DNA of 7,403 nt, taken from IMG/VR virus record IMGVR_UViG_2706794698_000012; one strand, 5' to 3'. The notes under the pieces were generated by a model. That model saw only the letters and a list, made by a program, of their open reading frames with translations. It did no database searches and was not told where the DNA came from. The stretch comes from a virus (lineage: Duplodnaviria > Heunggongvirae > Uroviricota > Caudoviricetes). The position numbers were made by a program, and so were the translations under genes. This document shows positions 1-6,616 of this stretch, piece after piece; the stretch's first letter is position 1, and each line of letters opens with the position of its first letter.

Positions 1-558
1 AAACTTTTTGACACCTCGATTCCCCCGGGGGGGATTTAGGGGGGGATCTGTTTTTAGATCTTTATCTGTATCTTTATTAGTTGCCTTTGTGTTGACATCA
101 TGTTCAAACACCACTTCAACATCTGTTTGAACACCTGTTAAATTTCTCTCTTGTTTTGTTTGAACATCTGCTTCCTTTCTGCTTCTTCTGGCCTGAACAG
201 ATGCTTTTCCTGCGGCTGATTTTTTGGTTAATTTTTCCCTGACTGATGCCAGATCTTCCTCAATCCGAAGATGCACCCATTCCTCGCCGTTATCGCAAAA
301 AAACTCCTGCAAGGATGGTTCAACATCAGCCCATCGCTCGTTAGTCAGACGGGCAATTTTTGCCAGCCTGTTTTTAGGTATTGGCTTTCCTGTTTGCCAG
401 TAATTGAACATCAGCAACAAATACGCACCATGCTCCTCTGCTGACAAATGCATGGTGTCAGCCAGGTAATCAGCTATGTACAGTTGCATGTATGGTAATG
501 CGGCCATAATTGCCCCGTATGATGCTGCCCGGTGGCTTAGAATAAGCACAAACAGCAT
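1..558 (-). CDS. ydaU: Rac prophage protein YdaU, N-terminal 186 codons (3' end lies beyond window start); putative lambdoid replication-initiation (O-like) protein
   Basis: Minus-strand ATG at 558..556 sits 12 nt downstream of the ydaT stop. I translated the frame by hand and it is open to position 1 (558 nt = 186 codons, no stop). It begins MLFVLILSHRAASYGAIMAALPYMQLYIADYLADTMHLSAEEHGAY and ends in the window with ...DLKTDPPLNPPRGNRGVKKF, which I recognise as Rac YdaU. Absent from the ORF track because it is truncated by the window edge. The replication role is inference. Confidence 0.85.
   Translation of the reverse strand, partial: MLFVLILSHRAASYGAIMAALPYMQLYIADYLADTMHLSAEEHGAYLLLMFNYWQTGKPIPKNRLAKIARLTNERWADVEPSLQEFFCDNGEEWVHLRIEEDLASVREKLTKKSAAGKASVQARRSRKEADVQTKQERNLTGVQTDVEVVFEHDVNTKATNKDTDKDLKTDPPLNPPRGNRGVKKF
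101..170. repeat. Iteron-like array: three copies of TGTT-NN-AACA (101-110, 124-133, 157-166) and a 14-mer TGTTTGAACA(C/T)CTG repeated at 124-137 and 157-170
   Basis: Read directly from the sequence. Located inside the ydaU coding region; adjacent segment 44-80 is AT-rich with two GATC sites and ATCTG/ATCTTT repeats. Candidate replication origin by analogy with lambda ori inside gene O. Confidence 0.4.
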
Positions 559-570
559 GGAAACTTTTGC

Positions 571-993
571 TTAATGAACAATGACAGAATCGTCGGAAGA
601 CCCGCCGCCGCTGAAATGCGCTTTCCGGTAAACGGCTTGGACTGCATCATCATGCGCATCAATTGCCGTACTTAACGCTTCCTGCGCCGCCAGTAATGCA
701 CGGCGTTCCAGGGTATCGAAGATGCAGAGTCGGTGACGCAGCTCGCGCGGAAGGATTGCCAGAATTGCTGGGATCAGCTTCTGAATTTTTTCTCTTTGCG
801 TTTTCGTTTCACCTTTCAACCAACGGTGATAGATATTCTGCTGATTATTCCAGTCCTTGCCTGGTACCAGGGGCAATTCGCCGCCCCCCTGGCGCAGATA
901 TTCTTCAGTAATGGCATTGGCTACCCATGCCTGCCCTTTTTCGGCTGCCAGGGCTAACAACACTGACTCGATGTGCTCATGCTTGATTTTCAT
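571..993 (-). CDS. ydaT: Rac prophage protein YdaT (140 aa)
   Basis: Complete ORF in the track (140 aa, MKIKHEHIESVLLALAAEKGQAWVANAITEEYL...). Its ATG (993..991) overlaps the ydaS stop (992..990) in an ATGA arrangement, indicating translational coupling. Confidence 0.9.
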   Translation of the reverse strand: MKIKHEHIESVLLALAAEKGQAWVANAITEEYLRQGGGELPLVPGKDWNNQQNIYHRWLKGETKTQREKIQKLIPAILAILPRELRHRLCIFDTLERRALLAAQEALSTAIDAHDDAVQAVYRKAHFSGGGSSDDSVIVH

Positions 994-1244
994 GAATCAA
1001 CTCCCATCAGCTTTTTCGTAGTAGTTTTATTTCTGCCAATAGTTAAAATTACATCAGCAGAAAATAATCCGTTTGATGCATGAGCGATTTTTTCAGCGTA
1101 ATTTGTTTCGCCGGTATATTCTGTGCGAGGCAATTTTCCGTTATCCATCCATTTGTAGATTGCTCTTTGGCTGACACCACAAACGTCGGCCACAACAGAA
1201 ACGCGAACAGTTTTGATTACATCTTCAAGTGTTTTCTGGTTCAT
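990..1244 (-). CDS. ydaS: Cro-like HTH DNA-binding protein YdaS (84 aa from ATG 1244; the track ORF extends to an upstream ATG at 1316, 108 aa)
   Basis: ATG at 1244..1242 is preceded by GAGGG (plus 1249-1253) at 4 nt spacing. Product MNQKTLEDVIKTVRVSVVADVCGVSQRAIYKWMDNGKLPRT... contains a helix-turn-helix. The 1316 start is disfavoured because it would lie only 7 nt from the divergent racR ATG and has no Shine-Dalgarno. I recall a 98-aa annotation, but no start codon exists at that position here. Confidence 0.8.
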   Translation of the reverse strand: MNQKTLEDVIKTVRVSVVADVCGVSQRAIYKWMDNGKLPRTEYTGETNYAEKIAHASNGLFSADVILTIGRNKTTTKKLMGVDS

Positions 1245-1323
1245 ATCACCCTCACAATGTGAACTTTGAGTACATGCTATAACAGAACTGACAGTACATT
1301 CAAGAGTGAATATCATTGAACTT
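1245..1323. promoter_or_regulatory. Divergent racR / ydaS control region (79 bp) with repeated GAACT-N3-AGTACA elements; putative operators and divergent promoters
   Basis: Sits between divergent repressor-like (racR) and Cro-like (ydaS) genes. AGTACAT occurs at 1269-1275 and 1293-1299 (24 bp apart), each preceded by GAACT (1261-1265, 1284-1288). No Shine-Dalgarno upstream of the racR ATG. Operator and promoter assignment is inference. Confidence 0.5.
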
Positions 1324-1833
1324 ATGGTTCATGAAGATAAAGCGCGTAAAGAGTTCGCCAGTAGGCTTGCGCTAGCCTGTGAAAACGCTGGTTATGAACA
1401 ACATGGAAGGCAGGCAGAAATTGCCCGTCGAATGAAATTAACACCAAAAGCGGTTAGCAAATGGTTTAATGGCGAAACAATTCCTCGCCGAGAGAAATTA
1501 AGGGAATTAGCAACACTCATTGGAACAACACCANNNNNNNNNNNNNNNNNNNNNNNNNNNNNNNNNNNNNNNNNNNNNNNNNNNNNNNNNNNNNNNNNNN
1601 NNNNNNNNNNNNNNNNNNNNNNNNNNNNNNNNNNNNNNNNNNNNNNNNNNNNNNNNNNNNNNNNNNNNNNNNNNNNNNNNNNNNNNNNNNNNNNNNNNNN
1701 NNNNNNNNNNNNNNNNNNNNNNNNNNNNNNNNNNNNNNNNNNNNNNNNNNNNNNNNNNNNNNNNNNNNNNNNNNNNNNNNNNNNGCTTCACTTTATCCCA
1801 TCTCATTTTTTTACACACAAAATGTACTTATAG
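1324..1833 (+). CDS. racR: Rac prophage repressor RacR (CI-like HTH repressor); 3' portion masked, true stop uncertain
   Basis: ATG at 1324 (track ORF starts at GTG 1306). Visible product MVHEDKARKEFASRLALACENAGYEQHGRQAEIARRMKLTPKAVSKWFNGETIPRREKLRELATLIGTTP contains an XRE-type HTH. The frame runs into the N block 1534-1784; the first in-frame stop after the mask is TAG 1831-1833, but the post-mask translation (LHFIPSHFFTHKMYL) looks non-coding, so the real stop is probably inside the mask. Confidence 0.7.
   Translation: MVHEDKARKEFASRLALACENAGYEQHGRQAEIARRMKLTPKAVSKWFNGETIPRREKLRELATLIGTTPXXXXXXXXXXXXXXXXXXXXXXXXXXXXXXXXXXXXXXXXXXXXXXXXXXXXXXXXXXXXXXXXXXXXXXXXXXXXXXXXXXXXLHFIPSHFFTHKMYL
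1534..1784. other. Masked block of 251 N
   Basis: Run of n characters; hides the racR 3' end and part of the racR-ydaG spacer. Confidence 1.
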
Positions 1834-3729: not shown

Positions 3730-4005
3730 ATGATTACCAATTATGAAGCCACTGTTGTAACTACCGATGACATTGTTCACGAGGTGAATCTGGAAGGAAA
3801 GCGCATTGGCTACGTAATTAAAACAGAAAATAAAGAAACCCCATTCACTGTGGTTGATATCGATGGTCCATCAGGCAACGTAAAAACACTTGATGAAGGT
3901 GTCAAAAAAATGTGCCTGGTGCATATCGGAAAGAATCTGCCCGCANNNNNNNNNNNNNNNNNNNNNNNNNNNNNNNNNNNNNNNNNNNNNNNNNNNNNNN
4001 NNNNN
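3730..4005 (+). CDS. racC: Rac prophage protein RacC; 3' end masked, end coordinate estimated from a recalled 91-aa length
   Basis: ATG 3730 preceded by AAGGAG (3718-3723). Visible product MITNYEATVVTTDDIVHEVNLEGKRIGYVIKTENKETPFTVVDIDGPSGNVKTLDEGVKKMCLVHIGKNLPA runs into the N block at 3946. The track ORF begins at an upstream ATG 3682 without a Shine-Dalgarno. Confidence 0.7.
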
Positions 4006-4196
4006 NNNNNNNNNNNNNNNNNNNNNNNNNNNNNNNNNNNNNNNNNNNNNNNNNNNNNNNNNNNNNNNNNNNNNNNNNNNNNNNNNNNNNNNNNNNNNNN
4101 NNNNNNNNNNNNNNNNNNNNNNNNNNNNNNNNNNNNNNNNNNNNNNNNNNNNNNNNNNNNNNNNNNNNNNNNNNNNNNNNNNNNNNNNNNNNNNNN
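3946..4196. other. Masked block of 251 N
   Basis: Run of n characters; hides the racC stop, the racC-recE junction and the recE start codon. Confidence 1.
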
Positions 4197-6616
4197 TTGA
4201 ATCGACCTGTGCCACTCTGGACTACCTGATCGTTAAGTCAGGTAAAAAACTGAGCAGCTATTTTAAAGCTGTTGCCACGAATTTTCCTGTCGTTAATGAC
4301 CTGCCCGCTGAAGGTGAGATCGATTTTACCTGGAGTGAACGCTATCAACTCAGCAAAGACTCCATGACATGGGAACTAAAACCGGGAGCAGCACCAGACA
4401 ACGCTCACTATCAAGGCAATACCAACGTCAACGGCGAAGACATGACTGAGATTGAGGAGAATATGCTACTCCCAATTTCTGGCCAGGNNNNNNNNNNNNN
4501 NNNNNNNNNNNNNNNNNNNNNNNNNNNNNNNNNNNNNNNNNNNNNNNNNNNNNNNNNNNNNNNNNNNNNNNNNNNNNNNNNNNNNNNNNNNNNNNNNNNN
4601 NNNNNNNNNNNNNNNNNNNNNNNNNNNNNNNNNNNNNNNNNNNNNNNNNNNNNNNNNNNNNNNNNNNNNNNNNNNNNNNNNNNNNNNNNNNNNNNNNNNN
4701 NNNNNNNNNNNNNCGGTGCTAATGCTGGCGGCGGAAACCTCACCGATCGCGGCGAAGGTTTCGTACACGATCTGACGTCACTGGCGCGGGACGTAGCCAC
4801 TGGCGTACTGGCCCGTTCAATGGATCTGGACATCTATAACCTTCATCCGGCACACGCTAAACGCATTGAGGAAATTATCGCTGAAAATAAACCGCCCTTT
4901 TCTGTTTTCCGCGACAAATTCATCACCATGCCTGGCGGGCTGGATTATTCCCGCGCCATCGTGGTTGCGTCCGTAAAAGAAGCACCAATTGGGATCGAGG
5001 TCATCCCCGCGCACGTCACTGAATATCTGAACAAAGTACTGACTGAAACCGATCATGCCAACCCTGATCCGGAAATCGTGGATATTGCCTGCGGTCGCTC
5101 CTCTGCCCCGATGCCGCAGCGAGTAACAGAAGAAGGAAAACAGGATGATGAAGAAAAACCGCAACCATCTGGAACAACGGCAGTTGAACAGGGAGAGGCT
5201 GAAACAATGGAACCGGACGCAACTGAACATCATCAGGACACGCAGCCGCTGGATGCTCAGTCACAGGTAAATTCTGTTGATGCGAAATATCAGGAACTGC
5301 GGGCAGAACTCCATGAAGCCCGGAAAAACATTCCATCAAAAAATCCTGTCGATGCCGATAAATTGCTTGCTGCATCACGTGGTGAATTTGTTGACGGAAT
5401 TAGCGACCCGAACGATCCGAAATGGGTAAAGGGGATCCAGACTCGCGATTGTGTGTACCAGAACCAGCCAGAAACGGAAAAAACCAGCCCGGATATGAAT
5501 CAACCTGAGCCAGTAGTGCAACAGGAACCGGAAATAGCCTGCAATGCCTGCGGCCAGACTGGCGGGGATAACTGCCCTGACTGTGGTGCGGTGATGGGCG
5601 ACGCAACATACCAGGAAACATTCGATGAAGAGAGTCAGGTTGAAGCTAAGGAAAATGATCCGGAGGAAATGGAAGGCGCTGAACATCCGCACAATGAGAA
5701 TGCTGGCAGCGATCCGCATCGCGATTGCAGTGATGAAACTGGCGAAGTCGCAGATCCCGTAATCGTAGAAGACATAGAGCCAGGTATTTATTACGGAATT
5801 TCGAATGAGAATTACCACGCGGGTCCCGGTGTCAGTAAGTCTCAGCTCGATGACATTGCTGATACTCCGGCACTGTATTTGTGGCGTAAAAATGCCCCCG
5901 TGGACACCACAAAGACAAAAACGCTCGATTTAGGAACCGCTTTCCACTGCCGGGTACTTGAGCCGGAAGAATTCAGTAACCGCTTTATCGTAGCACCTGA
6001 ATTTAACCGCCGGACAAACTCCGGAAAAGAAGAAGAGAAAGCGTTTCTGAGGGAATGCGCAAGCACAGGAAAAACGGTTATCACTGCCGAAGAAGGCCGG
6101 AANNNNNNNNNNNNNNNNNNNNNNNNNNNNNNNNNNNNNNNNNNNNNNNNNNNNNNNNNNNNNNNNNNNNNNNNNNNNNNNNNNNNNNNNNNNNNNNNNN
6201 NNNNNNNNNNNNNNNNNNNNNNNNNNNNNNNNNNNNNNNNNNNNNNNNNNNNNNNNNNNNNNNNNNNNNNNNNNNNNNNNNNNNNNNNNNNNNNNNNNNN
6301 NNNNNNNNNNNNNNNNNNNNNNNNNNNNNNNNNNNNNNNNNNNNNNNNNNNNNNNNNNNNNNNNNNNNNCAGTGACGGTTATGAAGCACAGTTTGGAGTG
6401 CAGCCAACTTTCGTTTTTCTGGTTGCCAGCACAACTATTGAATGCGGACGTTATCCGGTTGAAATTTTCATGATGGGCGAAGAAGCAAAACTGGCAGGTC
6501 AGCTGGAATATCACCGCAATCTGCGAACCCTGGCTGACTGCCTCAATACCGATGAATGGCCAGCTATTAAGACGTTATCACTGCCCCGCTGGGCTAAGGA
6601 ATATGCAAATGACTAA
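4016..6616 (+). CDS. recE: Exodeoxyribonuclease VIII RecE; start codon masked, start coordinate estimated
   Basis: A single frame carries ...[32 protein letters not shown]... (from 4199), [53 protein letters not shown]... and the C-terminus ...[20 protein letters not shown], stop TAA 6614-6616. The frame is the same on both sides of the N blocks 4488-4713 and 6103-6369. Start 4016 assumes the recalled 866-aa length; my recalled racC-recE spacing would instead put it near 4107, so the true start is anywhere in 4006-4196. The track start at 3890 is rejected because it overlaps racC. Confidence 0.85.
4488..4713. other. Masked block of 226 N inside recE
   Basis: Run of n characters; recE frame is preserved across it. 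Confidence 1.
6103..6369. other. Masked block of 267 N inside recE (C-terminal nuclease region)
   Basis: Run of n characters; recE frame is preserved across it. Confidence 1.

Follow-up and report, generated by a model that had tools for sequence, protein, structure and literature searches.

A putative lambda-like replication origin inside ydaU of the Rac prophage and a related repeat in DUF1376 prophage genes

We analysed a 7,403-nucleotide stretch of prophage DNA (referred to as the window) and propose with good confidence that its positions 22–165, together with an outlying site at 318–324, constitute the replication origin of the ydaU-ydaV module. This origin would be organized like that of phage lambda and is very probably oriJ, the origin of the Rac prophage. 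Sequence comparisons support the reading of the element as a lambda-type origin that would work with a different initiator DNA-binding domain and with short iterons phased at about 11 nt.

Beyond Rac, we consider it probable, although with less assurance, that the DUF1376/YdaU proteins are a widespread class of prophage initiators that is uncharacterised in the accessible literature. These proteins would carry the origin in their own genes, as a palindromic 7-bp iteron (CC-GTTSAAC-GG) that recurs every 11 bp in two clusters, at distances of about 183 and about 364 nt from the gene start, ahead of an A-rich simple-sequence tract. Such a code in the DNA would be constant across alpha-, beta- and gamma-proteobacterial prophages down to an N-domain identity of about 30% and would constrain both the choice of codons and the peptides of the linker.

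This reading would give the long-known, poorly localised oriJ of a model organism base-level coordinates. It would also provide DUF1376, a domain common in proteobacterial prophages, with a testable function, which is origin binding by a predicted winged helix. The consensus iteron and the layout could be used to annotate origins in related temperate phages, and the element would clearly exemplify how a DNA code and a protein code can overlap. The understanding of lambdoid replication is left unchanged.

Organization of the element in the Rac replication module

The window represents an E. coli Rac-type prophage in reverse orientation. The 5' part of ydaU occupies positions 1–558 on the minus strand and is cut by the left window edge, so that it encodes the DUF1376 N-domain and the linker but only the beginning of the C-terminal domain. 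To its right lie ydaT (571–993) and a small HTH gene (990–1244), then a divergent repressor gene and the region of sieB, kilR, ydaE and racC, and recE (3890–6616). Four stretches of the window are masked with N (about 1540–1790, 3950–4200, 4490–4740 and 6110–6370); the repressor gene and recE are both partly affected. Directly after ydaU, outside the window, follows ydaV, which encodes an IstB/DnaC-like ATPase (PF01695, E = 1.7e-20; phrog_50, "DnaC-like helicase loader"). The gene order is that of an early operon, leading from cro/cII-type regulators via ydaU to a DnaC-like loader.

The annotated start of ydaU is an ATG at 558 (285 aa), whereas the homologs support the ATG at 507 (MAALPYMQ...) as the conserved start; the 17 extra N-terminal residues that result from the ATG at 558 are absent in every distant homolog. 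All offsets in ydaU (+n) given below are counted on the coding strand from the conserved ATG at 507.

Positions 1–1300 of the window are 100% identical to strain 2013C-4538, and positions 1–999 are 99.3% identical to K-12 Rac. The ydaU part (1–560) aligned with K-12 Rac without any difference. Homology to K-12 Rac ends near 999, and the positions of ydaS and racR (window about 1000–1850) hold different HTH regulators, indicating that this strain combines the same replication module with a different allele of the immunity region. The RefSeq annotation has no origin feature in the ydaU region.

Along the gene, the element (window 22–165) consists of five phased GTT-N1-2-AAC sites, an A-rich tract and a C/G-run motif, in this order. 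An earlier note on this DNA had described three TGTT-NN-AACA cores inside ydaU and a longer repeat around two of them. We found the cores as TGTTCAAACA at 101–110 and as TGTTTGAACA at 124–133 and 157–166, and the longer copies extend to 124–138 and 157–171. The three cores are the only exact matches to TGTTYRAACA in the whole window and all lie within 66 nt. By chance, 0.059 such matches would be expected (first-order Markov model, 6408 unmasked bases), and the probability of the clustering is about 4e-9, an analytical estimate for a pattern that was picked post hoc. While the features listed in the earlier note are all present, they turned out to be a subset of the array, which comprises at least five phased sites.

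Site A (158–165) reads GTTTGAAC on the plus strand, corresponding to GTTCAAAC on the coding strand at +342, an offset at which a clade of 58% identity carries an exact GTTGAAC. The same plus-strand sequence, GTTTGAAC, is found at site B (125–132; coding GTTCAAAC at +375). Site C (114–120) is CTTCAAC on the plus strand and GTTGAAG on the coding strand at +387. Site D (102–109) is inverted relative to A and B, with GTTCAAAC on the plus strand and GTTTGAAC on the coding strand at +398, and lies in a different reading frame. Site E (91–96) is degenerate, with GTTGAC on the plus strand (coding GTCAAC at +411). Another degenerate site is located in phase between A and B (137–143; GTTAAAT, coding ATTTAAC) at +364, which is the best-conserved site position across the ydaU family. 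As iterons, the Rac copies are therefore short and partly degenerate. The five well-formed sites are spaced by 33, 12, 11 and 13 nt and would therefore all point to the same side of the helix. The array covers codons 115–139 (numbered from the conserved start) and thus falls into the inter-domain part of YdaU, as had been supposed from the sequence alone. An upstream auxiliary site at 318–324 (+183) is an exact copy of the family consensus, GTTCAAC. It is located in the part coding for the N-domain (peptide DVEP) and is the third-best weight-matrix (PWM) match in the window.

The A+T-rich tract (46–90; +417..+462) directly adjoins the array and is transcribed after it. It is A-rich on the coding strand, contains short GATA/GATC repeats and represents a candidate DNA-unwinding element. 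The motifs that had been listed for this stretch could be located, namely GATC at 45–48 and 57–60, ATCTG at 46–50 and 64–68, and ATCTTT at 58–63 and 70–75. Its AT-richness was likewise confirmed, with a G+C content of 25–33% over 41–100. The 25% at 51–90 is tied with 1011–1050 for the lowest 40-nt value in a scan of window 1–1400.

GATC occurs 23 times in the window, which is the level expected by chance, and the two sites in the tract are unremarkable on their own; they gain meaning solely from the comparison of homologs. In Enterobacterales homologs, 27 GATC sites were counted in the tract (+400..+500) where 5.4 were expected (about five-fold), compared to 8 versus 6.3 expected in Pseudomonas-like loci and 5 versus 9 expected in Achromobacter and Bordetella loci. 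The enrichment in Enterobacterales alone would be consistent with a role linked to Dam in enteric hosts. Unwinding regions that are AT-rich and contain clusters of GATC are also known from P1 oriR and from the 13-mers of oriC; in the Rac-type tract, GATC is clustered in Dam-positive hosts alone. One stretch of the tract, GATCTGTTTTTAG at 45–57, differs from the oriC 13-mer consensus GATCTnTTnTTTT by two mismatches. This weak match is the single one at that stringency in the tract, and matches of its quality are no rarity in the window (9 versus 3.7 expected).

The C/G-run motif (22–45) reads CCCCCGGGGGGG-ATTTA-GGGGGGG on the plus strand and C7-TAAAT-C7-G5 on the coding strand, where it encodes the peptide PPLNPPRG. 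It contains a CCCCCGGGGG palindrome and forms the left border of the shared C-terminal module; after the motif (window 45–22), the peptide KKFDPL opens the C-terminal domain. A motif of the C5-TAAAT-C5 type after the AT tract is also present in the O genes of phage EcoS-673R7 and of Gifsy-1 and in many homologs. In one IMG/VR contig (L058), the C7-TAAAT unit occurs twice at the equivalent of window 22–45, as a 12-nt duplication, which indicates that the motif varies by slippage. Additionally, the plus strand at 27–45, GGGGGGGATTTAGGGGGGG, fits the pattern G3-N1-G3-N5-G3-N1-G3, and a G-quadruplex could possibly form here on the template strand beside the AT tract. All four proline codons of the C/G-run are CCC, the arginine codon is CGG and the first glycine codon is GGG. 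CCC, CGG and GGG are rare codons in E. coli.

Relation of the ydaU element to oriJ

Diaz et al. in 1979 and Potrykus et al. in 2000 are said to have treated oriJ as a genetically defined origin of Rac, the latter working on oriJ-based plasmids. In later work, Rac was stated to have an active origin, oriJ (PMC3945230), and a transient peak of Rac copies was observed after induction (PMC11014345). The genes ydaU-W are derepressed on silencing of racR (bioRxiv 10.64898/2026.09.06.749655). While oriJ as a genetic entity has long been known, its anatomy and the family-wide iteron are absent from the accessible literature. The accessible papers contain no placement of oriJ at base resolution and no description of the ydaU repeats or of DUF1376 as an initiator.

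The element described here and oriJ belong to the same prophage and both lie in the Rac replication region, and the sequence of the segment is identical to K-12 Rac. The ydaU element was the sole origin-like structure that we found in the Rac replication module. It is most likely oriJ.

It is unlikely, but the strongest of the alternatives, that the element is a decayed relic which is structured like an origin, in which the array is too degenerate to fire and the oriJ activity resides elsewhere, e.g., in ydaV. Recent papers describe Rac as replication-defective, and the published primers "framing oriJ" (PMC3945230) map inside ydaV (L166:11283-11437), about 650–800 bp away from the array (L166:12091-12165). 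However, the ydaV stretch at the primers has neither such a repeat array nor an AT-rich tract, its G+C content being 50–58%, and a 150-bp qPCR amplicon near the origin would report the local copy number equally well. The sequence of the sites can also be read in favour of decay. The Rac sites are variants of the family consensus, with either a two-base centre (GTTCAAAC) or one mismatch, and a weight matrix built from the sites of relatives failed to single out the Rac array in the window (3 matches per 100 nt; 73 of 300 shuffles scored as well). The matrix misses the array because its sites carry the extra centre base or the mismatch, and the case for the Rac array rests on positional orthology and phasing. 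Rac lineages differ at sites A, C and E. By contrast, this strain and K-12 show no difference at sites B and D or in the AT tract, all of which have been kept in the Rac-SA53 lineage. Both ydaU and ydaV are intact, and the rise in Rac copies after induction is also at odds with a dead origin.

In some E. coli and Shigella copies, IS-like ends break the element. They are located a few bases after site D in E. coli ECMA0423 (L089) and Shigella flexneri (L090) and inside the AT tract in a third locus (L062). This suggests either that the tract is a hot spot for insertions or, in line with decay, that some lineages have an inactivated origin.

Comparison with the lambda origin and Gifsy-1 O, and a proposed mechanism

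The iterons of lambda are annotated at +348..+432 of gene O with the AT-rich tract ACACAAAAGACACTATTACAAAAGAAAAAAGAAAAGAT directly after them, and the Rac array spans +342..+416. The offsets of the array and the AT tract within the gene therefore match the annotated lambda origin within a few bases, which bears out the analogy with lambda that had been drawn in the earlier note. In both systems, the origin lies within the initiator gene between the DNA-binding N-domain (predicted in YdaU) and the C-domain, with the repeats starting about 345 nt into the gene. An A-rich tract of 40–45 nt follows the array in both, and the two tracts show some resemblance and can be aligned (lambda ACACAAAAGACACTATTACAAAAGA, Rac ACACAAAGGCAACTAATAAAGA). 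Both also have a loader gene downstream and an operon under the control of an immunity repressor.

The two systems differ in their protein components, with DUF1376 in YdaU in place of Phage_rep_O in lambda O, and the DnaC/IstB-like YdaV in place of lambda P. They also differ in their repeats. Lambda has four annotated iterons of 18 bp, with 20–24 nt from start to start; the Rac sites are palindromic cores of 7–8 bp at distances of 11–13 nt. Unlike lambda, Rac has an extra upstream site and a C/G-run motif after the AT tract.

The earlier note had suggested a comparison with the iterons of lambdoid phages. The O gene of Gifsy-1 has classical iterons and shares the right half of the Rac element. 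Unlike in YdaU, its N-domain is PF04492 (E = 1.5e-30) and its array consists of six lambda-like iterons, ATCCCCGAAAACGGGGAT (18-mers). After these iterons, Gifsy-1 O continues as Rac does, with C5-TTTAAT-C5 and KFDPL behind an A-rich tract that can be aligned with that of Rac; a loader gene of the same type is located downstream. The C-terminal domain is shared between the Gifsy-1 / 933W-type O genes and YdaU with 47% identity. Taken together, the layout, the gene order, the conservation at the DNA level and the shared right half support the interpretation of the element as a putative lambdoid origin.

These comparisons also bear on the possibility that the sites bind YdaU for a function other than initiation, e.g., autoregulation of the operon, copy-number handcuffing or incompatibility, with unwinding starting elsewhere. 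Plasmid iterons often double as control elements, and a second cluster of sites is present inside the part coding for the N-domain. We nevertheless regard this as very improbable, as it is the conserved order of array, A-rich tract and C-run at the offsets of the lambda origin that defines a lambdoid origin, and window 1–200 holds no promoter-like or terminator-like site and no Rfam family. The absence of such sites and of an Rfam family also led us to reject an explanation at the level of a transcript or RNA.

In Pfam, YdaU matches PF07120 (DUF1376) alone (E = 2.7e-26, residues 22–104 of 285 aa). Numbered from the conserved start, this match ends at residue 87, a modelled long helix ends at about 124 and the shared C-domain begins at about 156. 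The N-domain is predicted to be a winged helix. It does not belong to PF04492 (Phage_rep_O); YdaU would work like an O protein, yet it is outside the lambda O family by its N-domain. PHROGs lists YdaU as "primosomal protein" and its C-terminal half as "replication initiation O-like".

Some homologs are annotated as DnaT / primosomal protein I; for YdaU, the relationship of the C-domain to DnaT is too weak to be used. This YdaU has no match to PF17948, and it reached 15 bits with the NCBIfam DnaT model, compared to a cut-off of 201. PDB chains of DnaT gave weak matches to YdaU (E = 0.003–0.01), and a profile search with the C-domain did not recover them. The link to DnaT is clear solely for the alternative C-domain of Rac-SA53, which is PF17948 (E = 1.5e-18).

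For the element as the origin of the ydaU-ydaV module, we infer the following course of events from the anatomy, the positional identity with lambda, the DNA conservation in the family, the module boundaries and the predicted fold, which are the directly established parts. Transcription from the RacR-repressed early operon would proceed through ydaS-ydaT-ydaU-ydaV. The winged-helix N-domain (DUF1376) of YdaU would bind the GTT-N1-2-AAC sites, and, with the sites being 11–13 nt apart on one face of the helix, the bound YdaU would form a nucleoprotein array. Strain from this array would open the adjacent A-rich tract, and the C-terminal domain of YdaU would recruit the DnaC-like loader YdaV together with host DnaB onto the opened DNA. 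In enteric hosts, the GATC sites of the tract may tie firing to Dam methylation or SeqA.

Conservation of the repeat across DUF1376 prophages

A plain protein search with YdaU returned identical E. coli sequences alone, and a profile search was needed to obtain diversity. A scan of viral contigs gave mostly near-identical copies of Rac; the useful diversity came from a genome scan with one genome per species, which resulted in 80 loci from gamma-, beta- and alpha-proteobacteria, 67 of them non-redundant. In the 67 non-redundant loci, exact GTTSAAC was found 75 times at +300..+480 and 27 times at +180..+240. The flanks contained 34 copies in about 4 kb per locus, corresponding to an approximately 50-fold enrichment at +300..+480, a statistic that treats related sequences as independent and whose P values are thereby overstated. 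Neighbouring sites are most often 11 nt apart (60 of 89 intervals), followed by 22 nt (9 intervals) and 33 nt (3 intervals), and the arrays of the family comprise 2–5 sites at 11-nt spacing. In Pseudomonas and Bordetella phages with 32–44% identity, a simple A-rich repeat follows GTTCAAC/GTTGAAC arrays that lie about 350–400 nt from the gene start. In the same phages, the homolog is located after cro/cII-type genes and before a DnaC-like loader.

Within Rac, a single reading frame holds four of the five sites, with the peptides DVQT, GVQT, DVEV and DVNT (D/G-V-x-T), and the AT tract encodes a K/D/T-rich linker. Rac alone is therefore ambiguous as to whether the repeat is one of DNA or of peptide, and it is the relatives alone that exclude a peptide repeat. 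Among 77 exact linker sites in non-Rac loci, the codon phases are distributed 32/21/24, both orientations occur and the encoded peptides (RST, VE, PLN, VQ) are unrelated, indicating that the repeat is a DNA element. The tract behaves in the same way: its peptide changes from TDTDTD to NQNQNQ, EEKRREE or KDTDKDLK, while the coding strand stays A-rich. The +183 cluster encodes a conserved peptide, VE..LNEFF, and the codons that create the motif are preferred there over their synonyms, far beyond their use in the rest of the loci, with GTT in 23 of 24 cases (0.29 expected) and TTG in 21 of 24 (0.16 expected), counted over related sequences as if they were independent, which again overstates the P values. 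One locus (L117) retains the same DNA motif at this position with a different peptide. The earlier note had named a peptide motif that is not conserved at the DNA level in homologs as an observation that would speak against an origin; what we found is a core that is kept across frames at 30–45% protein identity. It is hence extremely improbable that the repeats arose as a by-product of coding for a repetitive, low-complexity protein linker and have no role as DNA, given that the heptamer occurs in three frames and both orientations at 11-nt spacing.

The modules of the gene can be separated by homology. In a tblastn search of phage genomes, some genomes shared residues 1–139 of YdaU alone and others residues 156–268 alone, the kind of mosaicism that is typical for O genes. 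The points at which homology between Rac-like copies breaks off are clustered at window 45–53 and at 9. The breakpoints at 45–53 indicate that the array and the AT tract move with the N-domain as one unit, separately from the C-domain.

The type of repeat co-varies with the N-domain, as GTTSAAC, AACCCAG, CCGTAG and lambda-type repeats are each associated with different N-domains. The O gene of Escherichia phage vB_EcoS-673R7 (L167:1370-1520) has a third type of N-domain without a Pfam match, and GTAAC/GTTAC repeats precede the same A-rich tract, C5-TAAAT-C5 and the shared C-domain. In an N-domain subfamily with the signature HIGDY...YRRLLDLYY, AACCCAG repeats take the position of GTTSAAC. Five loci of this kind (L148, L150, L153, L162 and L163; HIGDY...EDGAYRRLLDLYY) contain up to 9 copies of AACCCAG, both direct and inverted, at +330..+470, and a CCCAAT-type simple repeat follows these copies. 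Another five loci (L112-L114, L116 and L118) have the first half of DUF1376 followed by a different middle domain, which is GIY-YIG/T5orf172-like (compared with P0224, which has PF10544 and PF13455). There, CCGTAG/CTACGG arrays replace GTTSAAC at about +400..+480.
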